A stretch of 64,000 nucleotides of DNA, from the sequence record MT939241.1; one strand, 5' to 3'. The stretch is from Enterococcus phage 9183. Shown here one piece after another: positions 5,100-64,000 of this stretch (within the stretch, counting starts at the first letter, position 1; each line of letters opens with the position of its first letter). Below the pieces are notes generated by a model. That model saw only the letters and a list, made by a program, of their open reading frames with translations, did not search any database and was not told the origin of the DNA. Both the position numbers and the translations under genes were made by a program.

Positions 5100-5128
5100 T
5101 TTACATTTTCTTCATTGCCAGTTATAAT
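5100..5128 (+). promoter_or_regulatory. promoter (TTTACA-N17-TATAAT) with conserved leader atatatataatcaataaacaaa (copy A)
   Basis: About 60 nt nearly identical to 29835-29900. The leader is shared with 60601-60640. Confidence 0.55.
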
Positions 5129-5643: not shown

Positions 5644-5672
5644 TTTACAATGTCGACTTAGCTTGATATAAT
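5644..5672 (+). promoter_or_regulatory. promoter TTTACA-N17-TGATATAAT
   Basis: Extended -10 TGnTATAAT with a 17-nt spacer to tttaca. RBS AAGGAGG follows. Confidence 0.6.
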
Positions 5673-13090: not shown

Positions 13091-13118
13091 AAGGTTCGTT
13101 TACATAGCGAACCTTTTT
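13091..13118 (+). terminator. intrinsic terminator overlapping next promoter -35
   Basis: Hairpin aaggttcgtttacatagcgaacctt followed by a T6 run. The loop contains tttaca. Confidence 0.65.
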
Positions 13119-17689: not shown

Positions 17690-17718
17690 TTTACACATAC
17701 TTTTTCCTATGATATAAT
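17690..17718 (+). promoter_or_regulatory. promoter TTTACA-N17-TGATATAAT with no ORF downstream
   Basis: Consensus match. The next 170 nt contain no ORF with an RBS. Confidence 0.55.
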
Positions 17719-17725
17719 ACTAAAG

Positions 17726-17892
17726 TAGATAAATAGATATACATATTTGTCTGAGGGACTTCGTTAGAAGTTCCGAAGGGCATCAGCTTCGCTGATGTAT
17801 TGCCAAGGTTGTACATATTTTATGTGGTTCCTTACCGAACGAGATAGAACGAAATAGGTAAAAAAAAAAATAGAGGATTTCTCCTCTATTTT
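17726..17892 (+). ncRNA. candidate small structured RNA (promoter-to-terminator unit, about 165 nt)
   Basis: Bounded by the consensus promoter and a bidirectional terminator. Internal hairpins cttcg...cgaag and catcag-cttcg-ctgatg. No ORF with an RBS. Confidence 0.35.
17859..17892. terminator. bidirectional intrinsic terminator (A11 - hairpin tagaggatttctcctcta - T4)
   Basis: Palindromic hairpin flanked by an A-run and a T-run. It terminates the plus-strand unit and the minus-strand gene 17896-18309. Confidence 0.7.
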
Positions 17893-17895
17893 AAT

Positions 17896-18309
17896 TTATT
17901 TTTTATGGAAATTTACTTCTTCAAAGAATCGATCAAGAGGATAAAAATCATCAATTTCAGGATCTTCAATCATGCGATAAATTTCTTCATTTTGAATTTT
18001 ATCAAAGATTGGAAAATATTCATTAGCTCTATACTTATATGATCGTGCAACTTCCTCTTTAACACTTGCATCTAGGTTCGTTGAATTTAATTGTCCTCTT
18101 ACATGATCAATGATAAAATCAATGAATTCATTTTTATTAACGTAAAGATCTTGGAAAAATTCTTTTTCTCTTGAGGCAAAATCTTCAAGTTCGTCGATCA
18201 TTGATTCGTATTGTTGATAAAGATCTTCATTATAATGAGGAATCTCCATTAGCAAATATTGACTTTCTTTAGTTTTCTTTAATAATTCTTGGTATTTTGT
18301 GTTTTTCAT
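17896..18309 (-). CDS. hypothetical acidic protein (only minus-strand gene within the plus-strand module)
   Basis: 137-aa ORF with RBS AGGAGTG. Divergent from the gene at 18549. Confidence 0.6.
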   Translation of the reverse strand: MKNTKYQELLKKTKESQYLLMEIPHYNEDLYQQYESMIDELEDFASREKEFFQDLYVNKNEFIDFIIDHVRGQLNSTNLDASVKEEVARSYKYRANEYFPIFDKIQNEEIYRMIEDPEIDDFYPLDRFFEEVNFHKK

Positions 18310-18482: not shown

Positions 18483-18510
18483 TTTACATATTTTTATACG
18501 ATGATATAAT
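18483..18510 (+). promoter_or_regulatory. promoter TTTACA-N16-TGATATAAT
   Basis: Consensus match. The leader matches the copy at 3075-3100. Confidence 0.6.
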
Positions 18511-20404: not shown

Positions 20405-20704
20405 TTGGAAAAATTTGTTGTTCATATTTTCTATAATAAAGAATTAATCAAGAAAGATTTAGTATTAGGTATCGCTGATCAAATTTCTAATATAAAAGTC
20501 AAAGACATTGAGCTCGTTCCTAATGTAATGGATATCACTGAAGATGAAGTAATGCGTGAAGCTTATGGAATCTCTCGTGAATTGAAGCGCATTACTGCTA
20601 TCGTTCTTGATGTAAAAAATAATGAATTATTTAGGGCTGAAGGAAATAATTCTACTTCAATTCTTACAACAATTCAAATGGGGTTAAATAATTATGAAAG
20701 ATAA
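20405..20704 (+). CDS. hypothetical protein
   Basis: 99-aa ORF with a TTG start. Confidence 0.45.
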   Translation: MEKFVVHIFYNKELIKKDLVLGIADQISNIKVKDIELVPNVMDITEDEVMREAYGISRELKRITAIVLDVKNNELFRAEGNNSTSILTTIQMGLNNYER

Positions 20705-21293
20705 TATTTGCTTTGTTCTTGCGGGAAAAACACTTTCTGGCAAGACAACTTTACTAAAATATCTTGAAGAGAAAAAAGGTATTAAGCGTTTCATTACGAC
20801 AACGACAAGACCTCCTCGTCCAGGTGAAATAAATGGGGTTGACTATTTCTTCATTAGTGATGAAAAATTTAATTCATTGATGAAAAAAGATTTAATCGTT
20901 GCTCCTAATTTTTACCAACCTGCTGAAGAAACAGGCAGCTCAATTTGGTCTTATGGGCTAGATGCAAATCTTCTTAAAAATAAAGGAAGAACTTTAGTTG
21001 TCACTGAAATCAAAGGAATTATTGACTTGCAAGATTACTTTGGTAAAAAGAACGTATATGCAATTTATCTTGATGTTTCTCGAGAAAAACAGTTAGAACG
21101 TTCACAATTACGTAATGAAAAATTCACTGAAGAAAAAATGCGTCGTATCTTAGCTGATGATGAAGCATTTGATAATATCTTCCAATACGCTGACCTCGTA
21201 TTGAATGCCGATGATTCAATAGAAGTAAATGCTGAAAGAATCGCTTCTTATATTGAATACGTCGAAAATTATTATAGGAAATTTCGCAACTAA
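20694..21293 (+). CDS. guanylate-kinase-like nucleoside monophosphate kinase
   Basis: P-loop AGKTLSGKTTL and TTTRPPRPGEINGVDYFFIS match the GMP kinase signature. Confidence 0.6.
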   Translation: MKDNICFVLAGKTLSGKTTLLKYLEEKKGIKRFITTTTRPPRPGEINGVDYFFISDEKFNSLMKKDLIVAPNFYQPAEETGSSIWSYGLDANLLKNKGRTLVVTEIKGIIDLQDYFGKKNVYAIYLDVSREKQLERSQLRNEKFTEEKMRRILADDEAFDNIFQYADLVLNADDSIEVNAERIASYIEYVENYYRKFRN

Positions 21294-21878
21294 GTGAAAC
21301 AAATGAAAATTGTTCTGCCAATCCCTCCTTCTGTAAATGGATATCTTTACCCTAAAATGATAAGAATGGGCGGAAGAATGATAGGAAGATTGGCAGAAAC
21401 AGTTGAGTCAAAAGAATATAAGGCTCATATCATTCCAATTATTAAGAAAAGAATAAAAGAAGAAAATTGGAAGCAGCCTGAACCTGGAACATTCGTTGAC
21501 GTTAAAATTGATTATTTTTTTCCTCGTAAACGAATGGATCCTTCCAATTATCTTAAGGTACCATATGATGCTTTTACCGCTGCAGGAGTATGGGGTGACG
21601 ATGATATGGCTAAACCTCAAACAGGTTTAGTGATAATTGATAAATTTGATCCTCGCATTGAGATAACTGTTTCAGTTTCTGATCAAAAAGGAATCTTCAA
21701 TAATAAAAAAGATCGTGATAGATTTATAACTAAGTATATGAACATGATCCCTAAACGATCATTTGATGCACTCCTTCGTAAACTTGATGAAGGTCGAGTC
21801 ACTGAAAAGGTATATTTGACGGATAAAAACAAAGTGGAGGTAAGAGATGAATTTCTTAAGGGAATCAAAAATAAGTGA
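21294..21878 (+). CDS. RusA-family Holliday junction resolvase
   Basis: LPIPPSVNGY and the acidic cluster WGDDD match RusA. Confidence 0.65.
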   Translation: MKQMKIVLPIPPSVNGYLYPKMIRMGGRMIGRLAETVESKEYKAHIIPIIKKRIKEENWKQPEPGTFVDVKIDYFFPRKRMDPSNYLKVPYDAFTAAGVWGDDDMAKPQTGLVIIDKFDPRIEITVSVSDQKGIFNNKKDRDRFITKYMNMIPKRSFDALLRKLDEGRVTEKVYLTDKNKVEVRDEFLKGIKNK

Positions 21879-22230
21879 TTACTTTGCGTTTTTTGCCGCC
21901 ATATTCATTACAGCTGCCCTATTGTCTTTTGGTTTCTATAAGCAAAATATAGATGAAAAGATTAAGCAGCTTGAAGACGACAAGACGACTCTTATCTATG
22001 AAAATAAAGAACTTAAAAAGAAAGATAATTATTTAAGTGACACATATGATGATTGGAAAGAGTCTGCTGGAGAAAAATTAGGATATGGTTCTATCTTTCA
22101 GCTTGAAGGAATTGATAGTGTAAAAGATACGACAATTCTTACAGTTAAAGACACAAAATATGGTGGCGAATATATTATAATAACAAACAGCGATCGTTCG
22201 TTTATGCAAATAACAGAGAGAAAAAAATAG
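21847..22230 (+). CDS. hypothetical membrane-anchored protein
   Basis: N-terminal TM (FAFFAAIFITAALLSFGF). 127 aa. Confidence 0.5.
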   Translation: MNFLRESKISDYFAFFAAIFITAALLSFGFYKQNIDEKIKQLEDDKTTLIYENKELKKKDNYLSDTYDDWKESAGEKLGYGSIFQLEGIDSVKDTTILTVKDTKYGGEYIIITNSDRSFMQITERKK

Positions 22231-22252
22231 AGGGATTACCCCTCTATTTTTA
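22226..22252 (+). terminator. intrinsic terminator
   Basis: Hairpin atagagggattacccctctat followed by a T5 run. Confidence 0.7.
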
Positions 22253-22284
22253 TACATATTTTAGTAAAAATGTACAAAATTTTG

Positions 22285-22313
22285 TTTACAAGTCACTCAT
22301 TGATTGATATAAT
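22285..22313 (+). promoter_or_regulatory. promoter TTTACA-N17-TGATATAAT
   Basis: Consensus match. Confidence 0.55.
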
Positions 22314-22319
22314 TATTAA

Positions 22320-22644
22320 GTGGTCAAAATTAATAAAGAAATTAAAGATCCTCGGAACTTTATCCTTCCTACTTAAACAACATTTGATCGCTTTCATACA
22401 ATTCATTTAAGGTTTTAAAATCAACCATTTTAAGTATAAACTTTTCAATTAAAAAACATTAATAAAAGAAAATTTTCTATATACATTGTTCTTAATAAGG
22501 TTTATAATTAATATGTTGGTTAAAAACACAACAAAGCATTACATAAAGAATCAGTCTTGAAAACCTAGCTTTTAAAGAAGAAAGCCAGATTCAGGTGGCT
22601 ATTTTTTATGCACAAAAATACTATATTAAAGGTGGAAAAATAAC
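22320..22644 (+). promoter_or_regulatory. long (about 330 nt) ORF-free 5' leader of the sigma-factor gene, with a terminator-like hairpin plus T-run at 22592-22618
   Basis: No ORF lies between the promoter and the ATG at 22645. agcca...tggct is followed by attttttat. Confidence 0.4.
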
Positions 22645-23274
22645 ATGACAAAAACATTCTTAATGACAACGAAAACAGGTGCAGTGCAAAAAGATTTTAC
22701 ATTTGAAGAATTATACACCCAGTTCTTTAAGATGATTCAAAAAGAAACTTGGTCAATGGTTAAAGTTTATGGAAACATTATGAAACGAGAAGAAATAGAA
22801 CAACAATTCACGATTGAACTTTGGAACTCATATGAAAAATATGACATCAGCCACGGAACTTGCATTTCAACTTACATCTATAATCGTTTCCAAAAAGCAA
22901 AAAGAGATCTTCTTTATCCACTTATTGGTTCAAGTAAAAGCAAATGGGAAAAGAAAAACACAACTTCATTATCAGCAAAACATAATGAAGATGATCGTAA
23001 TGATCAGTCTAATAAGATGTTTACAAACGATAAGACATATAACCAAATAGTTAGCGCAGAAAATCTTCTTGTGAGTCAAGATTTAATTGAAGCAATCATA
23101 AGCGTTTATAATAGAGAAGAAGATCTTGATCTTATTTTAATCTTGATTGATAAGAAGACTTATTCAGTCGCAAATTATGCAGAAAAATGGGGAATTTCAC
23201 GTGTAGCAGCCAATAATAGATTAAGAAAAATTAAGAAAGAATTGGTTAATGTGTTGGAAGATTTCAAGAATTAA
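22645..23274 (+). CDS. phage-encoded RNA polymerase sigma factor (sigma-70 family, regions 2 and 4)
   Basis: Region-2-like segment IELWNSYEKYD...YIYNRFQKAKRD and a region-4 HTH YAEKWGISRVAANNRLRKIKKEL. 209 aa. Confidence 0.65.
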   Translation: MTKTFLMTTKTGAVQKDFTFEELYTQFFKMIQKETWSMVKVYGNIMKREEIEQQFTIELWNSYEKYDISHGTCISTYIYNRFQKAKRDLLYPLIGSSKSKWEKKNTTSLSAKHNEDDRNDQSNKMFTNDKTYNQIVSAENLLVSQDLIEAIISVYNREEDLDLILILIDKKTYSVANYAEKWGISRVAANNRLRKIKKELVNVLEDFKN

Positions 23275-23301
23275 AATTTTCATATTAAAAATAGACGAAA
23301 T

Positions 23302-23341
23302 AAGCCTGGTAGTTTACACACTACTAGGCTTATGATATAAT
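23302..23341 (+). promoter_or_regulatory. stem-loop aagcctggtag...ctactaggctt embedding -35 TTTACA, plus TGATATAAT promoter
   Basis: 11-bp stem and consensus promoter hexamers. Confidence 0.55.
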
Positions 23342-23375
23342 AAAAATGTAAATATTAAATGAAGGTGGAATATGA

Positions 23376-25313
23376 ATGTCTGACAAAATTAGAAAATTAG
23401 ATGATAGAGCACAAGCACGTGAGAAATTAAGTATTTGGTACGGATCACGTGATAACTTCTATCATGGTATTAAAGAGCTTATCGCGAATGCCGCCGATGA
23501 ATTACGAAATCATGCGACAGATCCGGGTAAAATTGAAGTTACACTTTATGAAGGAAATCGTCAAATTATGGTTAGTGATAACGGACGAGGAATTCGTATA
23601 GGTGGTGAAACTGATGGTGAAAAGAATTATGATCTTTTATTTAGAACATTGTTCGCAGGTACAAAATATGACGTCACTGAATCGGTTACGACAGGAACGA
23701 ATGGTGTAGGAACGACTGTCTTAAACTTTACATCGAAGCTGTTCGCAGTAATGTCTCATTACGATGGTTTCGTTCATAAAGTTCGCTTCAAAAATGGTGG
23801 TGAATTAGATGGGGAATACACCGAAATGAAATTAGAAAAAGGTATGAAAGATGTTCATGGTTCAACTTTTGTCGTTGAATTAGATGAAACTATTTATCCT
23901 CATGTCGAATTTTCTCCTGATAAAGTAAAAGAAATCGTTCAACATTTTGCAGCTGCTACATTAGGCGTAGAATTTACATTTAATTATCTTGATCAAAAAG
24001 AAGTATTTAAATATGAAGACATTCGTGAACGTTTCGAAGAAATGATTGGATCAACATCAACTTCAGCGATCTTTACATTGGGTGAAATTGAAAATGTAAC
24101 ATCAGTTGAAATCGTTGATGGAGATAAAGATGTTGAAGAAAAAAATAGTTACAATATTATGTTAACATCAACTCCTGACGTTTACCAAGAATCATACTTA
24201 AATATGACTTGGCTTGAAAATGGTGGAGCTATTAATGAAGGTATTCTTGATGGTGTTCGTTTATTCATGAATAAGTATTGCCGCACCAATAAATTATTTC
24301 CAGGAAAGATCACCGCATTTTCAAAGGATGATGTTGAATCATCAATTTCTTTCTTAGCTTTCACTGAATCAAATATCGTCGAATTTTCTAACCAAACTAA
24401 GTTAAGTACAAATAAGAAAAAATATAGAGACGAAGCAAAAGATTATGTAATGAATTTGCTCACAGCTGTTTCAATGCAACAACCTAAAGATTTCAAAAAG
24501 CTCGTTGATCATCTTCTTATGGTTCAAAAAGCAAATGGAGCTAACGAACGTGCTCGTCAAAAATTAAAGAAACAGTTAACTGAAAAAGTTTCAGGAATTG
24601 GTAATAAAATTGAAAAACTGATCGACAGTGAAAAACATGGATTAGATGCAGAACTCTTCTTAACAGAAGGTGACTCAGCCAATGGGTCGATCGTTGATTC
24701 TCGCAACGATGAGTTCCAAGCTGCATTTCCTTTACGAGGTAAAGTTCTTAACGTTCTTAAAGCACCACTTGAAAAGATCTTTAAAAATGCGGAAATTGTG
24801 AATATGGTAAAAATCATTGGAACAGGTATCACTGATGGAAAGAAAAATGATTTTGACATTAATAATTTACGCTTTGGAAAAATCATTATCACAACTGACG
24901 CGGATGCGGATGGTGGACACATTGCTTCATTATTGATCGCGTTCATCTATCGTTTCATGAGACCTTTACTTGAAAATGGCCATGTTTACGTAGCACAAAC
25001 GCCTTTATATGAATTGAAGTTTCCTGATGATTCAGTTGTTTACTTTTTAACTGAAGATGAAAAAGAAAAGAACATTGGTAAATATGAAGGACAAAAATAT
25101 GTTATCCAACGTCTTAAAGGATTGGGAGAAGTTGATGCTGAAACAATGGAAGCAACAACGATGAATCCTAAGACGCGAAATCTATTACAATTGACGGTCG
25201 CCGATGGAGAAGCAAATTATGCGATGATAAATAATTGGATGGGTGACGATGTAAATCCTCGTAAGAAATTAATTGAAGAGCAACTTCATAATTACATTAA
25301 CGATATTGATTAA
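23376..25313 (+). CDS. type II DNA topoisomerase ATPase/TOPRIM subunit (GyrB/T4 gp39-like)
   Basis: GHKL-type N-terminus (ELIANAADE, GRGI) and the TOPRIM motif LTEGDSANGS. 645 aa. Confidence 0.75.
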   Translation: MSDKIRKLDDRAQAREKLSIWYGSRDNFYHGIKELIANAADELRNHATDPGKIEVTLYEGNRQIMVSDNGRGIRIGGETDGEKNYDLLFRTLFAGTKYDVTESVTTGTNGVGTTVLNFTSKLFAVMSHYDGFVHKVRFKNGGELDGEYTEMKLEKGMKDVHGSTFVVELDETIYPHVEFSPDKVKEIVQHFAAATLGVEFTFNYLDQKEVFKYEDIRERFEEMIGSTSTSAIFTLGEIENVTSVEIVDGDKDVEEKNSYNIMLTSTPDVYQESYLNMTWLENGGAINEGILDGVRLFMNKYCRTNKLFPGKITAFSKDDVESSISFLAFTESNIVEFSNQTKLSTNKKKYRDEAKDYVMNLLTAVSMQQPKDFKKLVDHLLMVQKANGANERARQKLKKQLTEKVSGIGNKIEKLIDSEKHGLDAELFLTEGDSANGSIVDSRNDEFQAAFPLRGKVLNVLKAPLEKIFKNAEIVNMVKIIGTGITDGKKNDFDINNLRFGKIIITTDADADGGHIASLLIAFIYRFMRPLLENGHVYVAQTPLYELKFPDDSVVYFLTEDEKEKNIGKYEGQKYVIQRLKGLGEVDAETMEATTMNPKTRNLLQLTVADGEANYAMINNWMGDDVNPRKKLIEEQLHNYINDID

Positions 25314-49444: not shown

Positions 49445-49463
49445 TCTCTATAATATATAGCCA
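49445..49463 (-). promoter_or_regulatory. candidate late promoter motif (minus strand TGGCTATATATTATAGAGA), copy 1
   Basis: 19/19 identical to 60498-60516, about 40 nt upstream of the chaperone start. An A-run lies upstream. Confidence 0.45.
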
Positions 49464-58389: not shown

Positions 58390-58450
58390 ACCTCCAATTA
58401 AATAAACTTAGAAAAATTGGTTTTCTAAACAGCAATTAATCTAAGTGATA

Positions 58451-58521
58451 CAGGCTACCAAGGATTCGAACCTTGACTAATGGTTTTGGAGACCATTGTG
58501 CTACCTTAACACTTGTAACCT
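58451..58521 (-). tRNA. tRNA-Trp (anticodon CCA)
   Basis: Manual fold. T-arm CAAGG-TTCGAAT-CCTTG, anticodon stem ATGGT/ACCAT with loop CTCCAAA, and a 7-bp acceptor containing one G-U pair. Boundaries are accurate to within 1 nt. Confidence 0.55.
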
Positions 58522-58651
58522 AAGGTACTCCGACTTTCGTCGGAGAGTTTATTTATGAAAAAACTTAGTAAATAAATAAATAAAAAGAAAAAAGAAAAAG
58601 GAAGTTATGACTAGAAAAAGGTGAATACACAGGTGAGTCTTTACGACTCAA

Positions 58652-58738
58652 CGGAAGCAGTAGGACTCGAACCCACAAGCCGACCAAACGACTAACCGCT
58701 TTCAATGCGGGTGCAGTACCAATTATGCTTATGCTTCC
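58652..58738 (-). tRNA. tRNA-Ser (anticodon TGA), type II with long variable arm
   Basis: Acceptor GGAAGCA/TGCTTCC, anticodon loop ATTGAAA, long variable arm stem AGTCG/CGGCT, and T-arm GTGGG-TTCGAGT-CCTAC. Confidence 0.7.
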
Positions 58739-60497: not shown

Positions 60498-60516
60498 TCT
60501 CTATAATATATAGCCA
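60498..60516 (-). promoter_or_regulatory. candidate late promoter motif TGGCTATATATTATAGAGA, copy 2 (upstream of packaging operon)
   Basis: Identical 19-mer to 49445-49463, about 30 nt upstream of the start codon. An A-run lies upstream. Confidence 0.45.
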
Positions 60517-63129: not shown

Positions 63130-64000
63130 ATGAAATTTTTATTAGTAAAATTTTTTATAAAATTTAAGTTTTTCTTATAAAATTCTTTAAGACAGGTGTC
63201 AAAAAATATTTCGTTTTGGTACTTTTAGTGAGATCTGACGTCAACAACGTATTATCTACATTTCTCCATTTTTTTCTGACGGATAGGCCGGCTATAGAGA
63301 GAGACGGAGTCGGGTGGCTGGTTCCGCGAGGTCGTGCATTGATGCTGCATATAACACTCATATCTTCACTCATTACATTCATTGATGTAAAATGTGACGA
63401 AATATTGTGCACAAATATATGATCACTCATTCATATATAATGCATTACACACTCACACTCATGCATACATATCATACACTCCTATCATACAGCTTATACA
63501 CTACTCTATATCCTTCTATATCTATCTATCTATAATAGAGCAAATATAGTGCTAAAAATAGTGTCAAATATAGGTTAAAATAGCACTAAATATCGTCAAA
63601 TATATGTACTATTTCTATATTATTTACCTTATATATTCGTCTATATATTCGTACCTATATAATAGACGTATAAAATAGTGCCATAATATTGTGCTTATAT
63701 TTTATCCCTATTATTTATCCTATTATAACTGCCTTATATAATTGCCTGTAGAATAGTCCTATCTATTAGTCCTTCTATTTATTACCAGTCATATATGGTC
63801 AACAATTTCTATCTCTCTATTGTCCATTCATTTATATGGATAGTATATGGACCAATTGGCTGGCTGTCTATATCTATCTATATTGGCTGGATATATAGAC
63901 GGATATATTAGTGGATATATATGGCAGCTATTCTATCGGCTATTCTATCGGCTATCTAGGCTATCTATTATATATTATTATTTATATTATTATTTATATT
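63130..64000. repeat. ORF-free repeat-dense region running to the window edge: 12-bp tandem repeats, dispersed ATAGTG(C/T) motifs in both orientations, G-depleted strand asymmetry
   Basis: ggatatat x3 at 12-bp period (63889-63920), ctattctatcgg x2 (63928-63951), tattatttatat x2 (63973-63996), tatatattcgt x2 (63630-63653), and atagtgcta/atagtgtca/tagcacta (63546-63588). Confidence 0.7.

Follow-up and report, generated by a model that had tools for sequence, protein, structure and literature searches.

Structure of the Sigma-Factor Locus

The stretch of DNA analysed here, hereafter the window, is a sequence of 64,000 nucleotides (nt) from Enterococcus phage 9183 (record MT939241.1), and our subject is the region that precedes a putative sigma-factor gene of this phage. 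The open reading frame (ORF) at 22645–23274 (+ strand) encodes 209 amino acids (aa) and is separated from the preceding ORF by a gap of 414 nt, in which three main features are predicted: promoter P1 (22285–22313, +), promoter P2 (22480–22508, +), and a long imperfect, terminator-like leader hairpin (22542–22610, +) made up of an A-tract, an extended stem, a GC tip, and a run of six U residues (U6). The evidence set out below suggests that this hairpin may act as a leaky attenuator of sigma-factor synthesis.

The gap follows an operon of guanylate kinase (20694–21293, +), RusA (21294–21878, +), and a 127-aa ORF (21847–22230, +), which is the last gene before it. The operon closes with a predicted intrinsic terminator, T0 (22228–22251, +; hairpin 22228–22246, then a T-run; ΔG −9.8 kcal/mol, tail TTTTTATACA), whose stem is kept in alignment A1 while the loop is variable. 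A GyrB/ParE-like gene (23376–25313, +) lies downstream of the sigma gene. The source phage is close to phage Planchet (Denvervirus, Andrewesvirinae), to which positions 21800–23400 are 94% identical.

A Sigma Factor of the SigN Family

With the single window protein as query, Pfam alone gave Sigma70_r2 at E = 0.06, which is below threshold, and listed this domain for several members of the family; PHROGs returned no match for the sigma protein or for the upstream 127-aa protein, and a genome-contig scan found no relatives. The family profile and alignment used here comprise 14 relatives of the sigma protein. The NCBIfam model TIGR02937 (sigma70-ECF superfamily) was matched by all 14 aligned members, with E = 2.8e-13 for the best and E = 2.9e-6 over residues 24–202 for the window protein. 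Compared with the PDB, the family profile aligned to region 2 of FliA (E = 9e-5), so that the sigma-2 domain (region 2) is recognised both by TIGR02937 and by profile comparison. The AlphaFold2 (AF2) model (predicted local distance difference test, pLDDT, 71) consists of two helical domains, sigma-2 and sigma-4, joined by a disordered linker at residues 95–143, and the best 50 Foldseek matches of this model in the PDB were all sigma factors, full-length ones included. The C-terminal sigma-4 helix-turn-helix corresponds to AF2 helices at residues 158–208 (pLDDT 77–92), into which the TIGR02937 match extends, to residue 202. Residues 2–19 (22645–22701) are predicted to form a β-hairpin in front of the sigma-2 helices; this N-terminal stretch (MTKxFL...) is conserved across the family and lies outside the canonical sigma-70 domains.

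The protein is also homologous to SigN of the Bacillus plasmid pBS32 (BLASTP, 32% identity, E = 6e-28), and tblastn with the sigma protein retrieved 40 Bacillus plasmids of ~84 kb, pBS32 among them. A homologue of SigN (ZpdN) in phage VPE25 was pointed out by Burton et al. 2019 (PMC6751061). The gene order guanylate kinase–RusA–gap–sigma is common to the window, pBS32, GR1, and the relative L012 (relatives are cited below by such numbers). From the TIGR02937 and FliA matches, the Foldseek result, the homology to SigN, and the shared gene order we therefore assign the ORF to the SigN family as a diverged sigma-70-type factor, which upholds the sigma-70-family protein with regions 2 and 4 described in the initial annotation. 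In position, this gap of 414 nt corresponds to the experimentally characterised sigN control region.

Promoters P1 and P2

P1 has the form GTTTACA-N15-TGATATAAT, i.e., TTTACA-17-TATAAT with an upstream TG, and matches the sigma-A consensus at 11 of 12 positions in addition to the TG, with a predicted start at ~22320. It is kept in L012 and in L006, a relative whose sigma protein is 83% identical to that of the window and in which the P1 core is also 83% identical. The consensus promoter of the initial annotation is thus real. P1 belongs to a class, here called class A, of which the exact pattern TTTAC-N16-GATATAAT occurs nine times in the window (0.01 expected), always on the + strand and always in the replication module: at 5644, 10680, 13099, 17021, 17690, 19386, 22285, 23313, and 25347. 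Genes headed by such sites include those for PolIII-alpha (13099), a GyrB-like protein (23313), and a GyrA-like protein (25347), and the genome of VPE25 has more than 20 class A sites. Two further members of the class stand at 18483 and 27737, and the −35 element of class A promoters is often wrapped by the terminator hairpin of the preceding gene (e.g., 13092–13114, 17012–33, 19386–, 23302–23331).

In pBS32, SigN-dependent promoters were defined by Rend-seq and in vitro transcription as TTTACG-N14-GATATAA(A/T), and they head the genes for DNA gyrase, PolIII, and nucleotide synthesis as well as sigN itself (PMC6751061). The class A spacer is 1 nt longer, and class A sites are at the same time near-perfect extended −10 sigma-A promoters. 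Since both promoter elements are similar, the headed genes are orthologous, and the sigma factors are homologous, the class A promoters probably constitute the regulon of the phage sigma factor, with P1 as its autoregulatory promoter. By this analogy the protein is more likely a sigma factor for middle (replication) genes with positive autoregulation than the agent of the early-to-late switch that had been proposed for it, which we consider less likely because the SigN regulon consists of genes for replication and nucleotide metabolism and the class A sites all fall in the replication module. Published RNA-seq data for VPE25 place the maximum of orf_79, the homologue of the sigma gene, at 10 min (PMC7064774).

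P2 (CTATATACAT...TTTATAAT, TATACA-17-TATAAT) has no TG, matches the consensus at 10 of 12 positions, and is predicted to start at ~22515. Its hexamers and their spacing are identical in L006 despite the diverged flanks, and in L032 a TATACA-17-TATAAT promoter stands in the same position. Promoters of this type, here class B, are also found at 5100, 18389(−), 28031, 29840, and 60578; they share upstream sequence rich in A, the elements T(T/A)TACAT and TTATAAT, and the lack of a TG, precede small genes, and head the right-hand + strand block, and they are good candidates for the host-dependent earliest promoters of the phage. The promoter scan detected no + strand promoter-like site between P2 and the ATG (22509–22644). 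Because no promoter was found downstream of the hairpin, read-through of the hairpin is required for sigma mRNA. A gene or antisense RNA on the minus strand was also considered; its sole basis, a 9/12 promoter-like site with the hairpin 16 nt downstream, is not credible.

One class A promoter is followed by no RBS-bearing ORF (RBS, ribosome-binding site): from 17690–17718 (+), ~165 nt lead to a bidirectional terminator (17866–17893), which this unit has in common with the convergent gene 17896–18309(−). For the unit 17690–17893, the predicted fold contains five hairpins (−56.3 kcal/mol, z = −6.1), and no Rfam family matched it above threshold. The segment 17690–17900 is a candidate phage non-coding RNA.

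The Leader between P1 and the Start Codon

From the predicted P1 start to the ATG there are ~325 nt, in line with the 330-nt leader that had been described; the description as a single leader fails, because the second conserved promoter lies inside it, and many transcripts, those from P2, would carry just ~130 nt of leader. We found no ORF of at least 25 aa with an RBS in the gap. The only short ORF with a Shine–Dalgarno (SD)-like motif has 11 codons (MHKNTILKVEK; 22608–22643, +) and ends 1 nt before the sigma ATG; the motif, AGGTGG located 9 nt upstream, occurs in the window only, close relatives having AAGTGG, and the ORF itself is not conserved, being reduced to 6 codons in L006 and having ACG for its start codon in L012 and L027. 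This sequence comparison suggests that it is probably not functional, so the leader may be called essentially ORF-free, much as initially claimed. The RBS and start codon of the sigma gene (22628–22647, +; SD AAAGGTGG, 9 nt upstream of the ATG) are 100% identical to those of L006.

The P1–P2 spacer (22314–22479, +; 165 nt) is unconstrained in sequence and contains no RBS-bearing ORF. Compared with L006 it shows 43% identity with 22 gap columns, against 67% at the third codon positions of the sigma gene, and the helices predicted in it are broken in L006. Its only conserved island is CATTTTAAGTA (22426–22436). The segment that separates the U-run from the RBS is likewise unconserved, L006 carrying a 10-nt insertion there. 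When the leader was compared by tblastx and blastn with the sequences upstream of the gene in relatives, nothing except the L006 blocks was found.

At the 5′ end of the P2 transcript, the minimum-free-energy fold contains a small stem-loop (22514–22533, +; UGUUGGUU...ACAACA), and a 5′-proximal hairpin is predicted in L006, L012, L027, L032, and L034 too; it may be a functional element. Two other pairings were rejected: sequestration of the RBS by the anti-SD sequence CCUUCC (22365–22370), seen in the fold, is not conserved in L006, and the pairing of the P2 −10 region with 22426–22444 is lost in the L006 row of alignment A1.

Structure and Strength of the Leader Hairpin

The terminator scan placed the GC tip, AGCCA-N8-TGGCT, at 22583–22600, followed by ATTTTTTATG. 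The tip is followed by an A (22601) and then by U6 (22602–22607), the element lying 36 nt before the start codon. The initial annotation had correctly noticed a hairpin and U-run upstream of the RBS, and erred in their position: its interval 22592–22618 contains the 3′ arm, the U-run, and downstream sequence, and the true coordinates are 22583–22600 and 22602–22607. An extended stem (22553–22600) has the same 3′ end base as the tip, and outside it the A-tract CAUAAAGAAU (22542–22551) pairs with the U-tract AUUUUUUAUG (22601–22610). The calculated energies are −6.0 kcal/mol for the tip, −10.5 to −11.3 kcal/mol for the extended stem, and −19.8 kcal/mol for the whole element. Structure prediction, the check that had been suggested for the leader, yields the hairpin 22542–22610, with z = −3.1 for the 100-nt P2 leader.

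In 3.5 kb, the terminator scan yielded four terminator-like sites, compared with 1.2 expected. A G+C stem-loop with a U-rich tract within 0–2 nt, as in intrinsic terminators, is present here in weak form (5 bp). Ten intergenic terminators of the same module have energies of −9.8 to −15.5 kcal/mol, as against −6.0 or −10.5 kcal/mol for the leader element. These calculations fit a leaky site: the element would be a weak terminator, of lower or equal stability compared with the terminators of the module.

The conserved block GGCTATTTTTTAT bears a resemblance that suggests another function altogether, namely that of a DNA promoter element dependent on the sigma or a late factor. The block has 14 of 19 bases in common with TGGCTATATATTATAGAGA, a motif found twice upstream of late operons; GGCTATWTWTTAT with at most one mismatch occurs five times against 0.93 expected, a count to be read with the fact that the pattern was picked after seeing the data in AT-rich sequence; and in the case of the homologous sigN, an autoregulatory promoter lies near the gene. 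Yet a stem followed by TATTTTTTAT is the ordinary look of a terminator in this phage, a start at this place would leave almost no room before the RBS, and the late motif of VPE25, TACTTATATATAATATAGA, has no counterpart upstream of the VPE25 sigma gene. Above all, the change of TGGCT to CGGCT in L006 and the unrelated stem of L012 keep the pairing and not the motif. We therefore rejected the resemblance and regard a promoter function of the block as highly improbable. The 19-mer TGGCTATATATTATAGAGA itself, with a preceding A-rich tract, is present in identical form at 49445–49463 (−) and 60498–60516 (−), in each case ~45 nt ahead of the gene that opens a leftward structural operon, and VPE25 carries TACTTATATATAATATA(A)GA at both corresponding gene positions; judged by this placement, TGGCTATATATTATAGAGA is likely a late-promoter element.

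Conservation of the Hairpin in Related Phages

Close relatives (Planchet, an IMG/VR contig, and Logan contigs) are near-identical to the window and hence uninformative; in particular, the conservation of the leader with respect to Planchet (98.6%) was discarded as evidence, the genomes being a mosaic of blocks of 60–100% identity. We therefore relied on more distant relatives. In L006, besides the promoters and the RBS, the island GTCTTGAAAA is 91% identical, the U-run and ATGCACAAA are identical, and the hairpin tip is kept with a compensatory change of an A-U to a G-C pair. RNAalifold applied to the whole P1 leader showed that only this hairpin stays intact in L006, and in the alignment of the window lineage with L006, 96% of the cells are paired compared with 34–53% in slid controls.

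In L012 and L027, whose sigma proteins are 46% identical to that of the window, a gap of ~415 nt follows RusA and opens with a homologous P1. These genomes contain a stretch alignable to the P2-to-hairpin segment of the window, which ends in an unrelated stem, GGAGAGA/UCUCUCU, with an energy of −8.4 kcal/mol and with AUUUUUUACG behind it. In the base helix, CAU..AUG of the window is replaced by CGU..ACG in L012 and L027; the second pair of this helix is A-U in the window, G·U in L006, and G-C in L012. A U6 run directly after the GC stem is exact in all three lineages. Since two diverged lineages preserve the element by means of compensatory changes, we regard it as more than a product of chance.

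The clearest compensatory change is thus found in the base helix and not in the terminator tip, and this bears on the possibility that the long hairpin is a processing or stability element of the 5′ untranslated region, an RNase III-type cleavage site or a protective stem that would set the half-life or translation of sigma mRNA. RNase III cuts early RNAs of the Bacillus phage SP82 and RNAs of phage T7 at such hairpins. With the A- and U-tracts paired, the element forms an imperfect duplex of ~30 bp with an energy of −19.8 kcal/mol, of which the tip alone contributes a weak structure (−6.0 kcal/mol); the extra 5′ end in the pBS32 sigN leader was also considered a possible specific cleavage site (PMC6751061). 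On the other hand, the A-U helix could persist with many sequences, whereas U6 after the GC stem is exact in three lineages, and the order A-tract, hairpin, U-tract is the normal layout of an intrinsic terminator too. We therefore consider a processing element unlikely, though the most serious of the alternatives.

The state of P2 in the L012/L027 lineage is informative for another alternative. Here P2 has a poor −35 element and, in L027, a broken −10 element, and the RNA element is still present; hence the element is kept independently of P2. This argues for a role in the P1-derived leader and against the idea that P2, hairpin, and U-run form a separate gene for a small RNA (sRNA) of ~95 nt, with sigma made by incidental read-through only. 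That idea is suggested by the layout of a 5′ stem-loop, an A-rich single strand, and a terminator, typical of Gram-positive sRNAs, by the conserved single-stranded island GTCTTGAAAA, which could serve as a seed, and by the existence in this phage of a second ORF-less promoter-to-terminator unit (17690–17893, z = −6.1). We assign a low probability to an independent sRNA gene; even if it were correct, sigma has no other transcription route, and the element would be an attenuator physically on either view.

L012 (2644–2830) and L027 show a further arrangement: P1 is followed by AGGAG, a conserved 13-codon GTG ORF (VGNFETVEMINCS / VGIFETVENINCS), and a 12-bp terminator hairpin immediately past its stop codon. 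From its sequence this unit is leader-peptide-like, and the window phage has no counterpart. As the L012 lineage thus has a strong terminator after P1 and then the element, terminators recur in the sigma leader.

Other relatives organise the region differently. In VPE25 and vipetofem (53% sigma identity), the spacer is replaced by small genes, and a class A promoter with flanking 13-nt inverted-repeat arms lies ~50 nt upstream of the sigma gene, with no hairpin and U-run; L014, L016, L025, and L033 have short gaps upstream of sigma; and L032 and L034 (sigma 47% identical) have tandem promoters and a 5′ stem-loop without a U-run. GR1-like phages and pBS32 have gaps of 500–700 nt with an exact SigN-type promoter next to the gene, LexA boxes, and no leader terminator. 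The window-lineage covariance model found no further copies of the element in the window, VPE25, GR1-like loci, or pBS32. Judged by these sequences, this sigma gene is generally preceded by a long control region with several promoters, and the terminator-like hairpin is a property of some lineages only.

In the Geobacillus GR1-like phages (L004 2303–2997; L021, L022, L026) the sigma protein is 61% identical to SigN, and the promoter ATTTACGTTTT...CAGATATAAATA adjoins the gene. One or two exact LexA/Cheo boxes (GAAC-N4-GTTC) are present in L021, L022, and L026 and also in pBS32 (L031 1943–2455), which suggests SOS-linked control of sigma in the boxed GR1-like phages.

The patchy distribution raises the question of whether the hairpin and U-run are a functionless relic, e.g., the terminator of a small gene lost from between P1 and sigma. 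VPE25-like phages do have small, separately promoted genes in this place, the P1–P2 spacer resembles decayed or replaced DNA, and the element is missing from several lineages. A relic would not be expected to stand out as a conserved block with compensatory changes amid flanks diverged beyond the level of synonymous sites, nor to be kept at 46% sigma identity, and we see only a slim chance that the element is one.

Other Features of the Window

In a simple ORF map, replication and nucleotide-metabolism genes occupy the + strand at ~0.1–30.8 kb, structural genes the − strand at 30.8–60.3 kb, and a second + strand block begins at 60.6 kb. Two phage tRNA genes, tRNA-Trp(CCA) at 58450–58522 (−) and tRNA-Ser(TGA) at 58652–58738 (−), are located in a gap upstream of the structural module. 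The stretch 63400–64000 is ORF-poor and contains many short direct repeats (GGCTATTCTATC-type units, GGATATAT units, and CTATCTAT runs); lying near where the right-hand early block begins, it may serve as an origin or packaging site or represent a terminal-repeat region.

Proposed Model of Sigma-Factor Control

A leaky attenuator that throttles sigma synthesis is the best-supported reading of these sequences, and we hold it with evenly balanced confidence. According to this model, two tandem promoters follow T0, of which P1 is of the type of the replication and nucleotide operons and P2 of the type that precedes small, presumably earliest, genes; transcripts from both must cross the hairpin 22542–22610. 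A fraction of the polymerases would stop at ~22605–22610, giving short RNAs of ~95 nt from P2 and ~290 nt from P1, and the remaining polymerases would read through into sigma mRNA. The effect would be to throttle the synthesis, driven by two strong promoters, of sigma, a competitor of the host sigma-A and a probable activator of P1, and so to damp a probable positive-feedback loop. Because sigma is transcribed only through the element, the latter is an attenuator in the physical sense if it terminates at all. That termination occurs, that it is partial, which sigma factor uses P1 and P2, and what purpose the arrangement serves we infer from the sequence.

Several observations weigh against the model. 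The tip has just 5 bp, an 8-nt loop, and an A between the stem and the U-run, and it may terminate poorly or not at all; in the finished RNA the U-tract is paired with the A-tract, as would suit a structural or processing hairpin of high stability no less. Covariation in the window lineage and L006 is weak, with a single pair in which both bases differ, a result also reached by 106 of 500 shuffles, and the window-lineage covariance model finds the L012 element at the right place, yet with E = 3.1 over 225 kb. By these comparisons the conserved structure is real, and its support comes from three lineages. Finally, the element is absent from the VPE25-like relatives, from L014, L016, L032, L033, and L034, and from pBS32, and therefore it is not essential for the control of sigma.

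As to regulated read-through, which was originally suggested for this leader, the read-through part stands, and regulation is unproven. No conserved, mutually exclusive antiterminator was found in the leader; the alternative extended stem shares its last base with the tip and so is not one. Nor is there a sign of a sensor, as the window contains no conserved ORF upstream of the hairpin, no leader peptide, and no ligand-type fold. The Rfam scan of the leader gave nothing at the gathering threshold, and the best sub-threshold match (Thr_leader, E = 0.98) is a chance, terminator-driven hit. A terminator that leaks constitutively accounts for the data as well as regulated read-through does.

One pairing in the leader would allow the two promoters to be treated differently. 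Positions 22428–22434 in the spacer island are complementary to 22556–22562, on the 5′ side of the extended stem; in L006, the replacement of a U by a C turns a G·U into a G-C pair, and L012 has no counterpart. The island UUUUAAG (22428–22434), present in the P1 transcript only, would then pair with CUUGAAA (22556–22562) in competition with the extended stem; alternatively, a phage or host factor would bind the hairpin and time the read-through. With such promoter selectivity, P1 transcripts would read through and early P2 transcripts would mostly stop as the ~95-nt small RNA, and a weak early pulse would turn into a sharp, self-locking sigma switch. We regard a switch of this kind as improbable.

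Comparison with Known Systems

The closest system is the sigN (zpdN) region of pBS32 (PMC6751061), with a homologous sigma factor, the order dUTPase...guanylate kinase–RusA–[513 nt]–sigN, and several promoters in a gap of 400–500 nt, one of them of the type of the replication and nucleotide genes. This promoter type is TTTACG-N14-GATATAA in pBS32 and TTTACA-N15-GATATAA (P1) in the window, and it is the proximal promoter in the former and the distal one in the latter. Furthermore, pBS32 has a LexA box and no terminator-like leader hairpin, whereas the reverse is true of the window, where no LexA (Cheo) box GAAC-N4-GTTC was found within 22231–22644 with one mismatch allowed.

The VPE25-type Andrewesvirinae have an orthologous sigma factor (53% identity) with a class A promoter directly upstream and differ in a leader of ~50 nt, in the lack of a hairpin with U-run, and in the small genes in place of the spacer of the window. 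In VPE25 (L002 2925–2965), 13-nt inverted-repeat arms CTACTGTGGATAT/ATATCCACAGTAG flank the −10 element of the sigma promoter and are lacking in the window; from their sequence and position the arms look like operators for some regulator. Another class A promoter, at L024 14860, has similar GGATAT/ATATCC arms.

With the attenuators of Firmicutes (trp/TRAP, pyr/PyrR, T-box, and riboswitch platforms) the leader element shares a stem-loop and U-run between the promoter and the RBS and expression by read-through. Unlike them, it lacks a conserved, mutually exclusive antiterminator, a leader peptide ahead of the terminator, and an Rfam match; it bears no signature for the binding of a protein or ligand, and it may be constitutively leaky. 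In phage lambda, the gene of the late activator Q lies behind terminators and is reached by N-dependent antitermination. The likeness is in a transcription regulator of the next stage that lies downstream of a terminator and whose synthesis is delayed or limited; in contrast to lambda, no nut-like site or antiterminator protein was identified in the window, and the regulator is a sigma factor, probably for middle (replication) genes.

Significance

A leader terminator as a mechanism is familiar; what is new is this example of it, in the region that controls a sigma gene of the SigN family. The SigN regulon of pBS32, defined by experiment, is now linked to the uniform TTTACA-N15-GATATAAT promoters of the Andrewesvirinae, and a testable cascade model follows, from class B promoters to sigma, from sigma to class A promoters, and from these to the late genes. 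If the proposed attenuation is true, a lytic Enterococcus phage from a group that serves in phage-therapy work limits its own sigma factor in this way. The factor probably drives the replication module as a whole and, like SigN in Bacillus, may do harm when present in excess.

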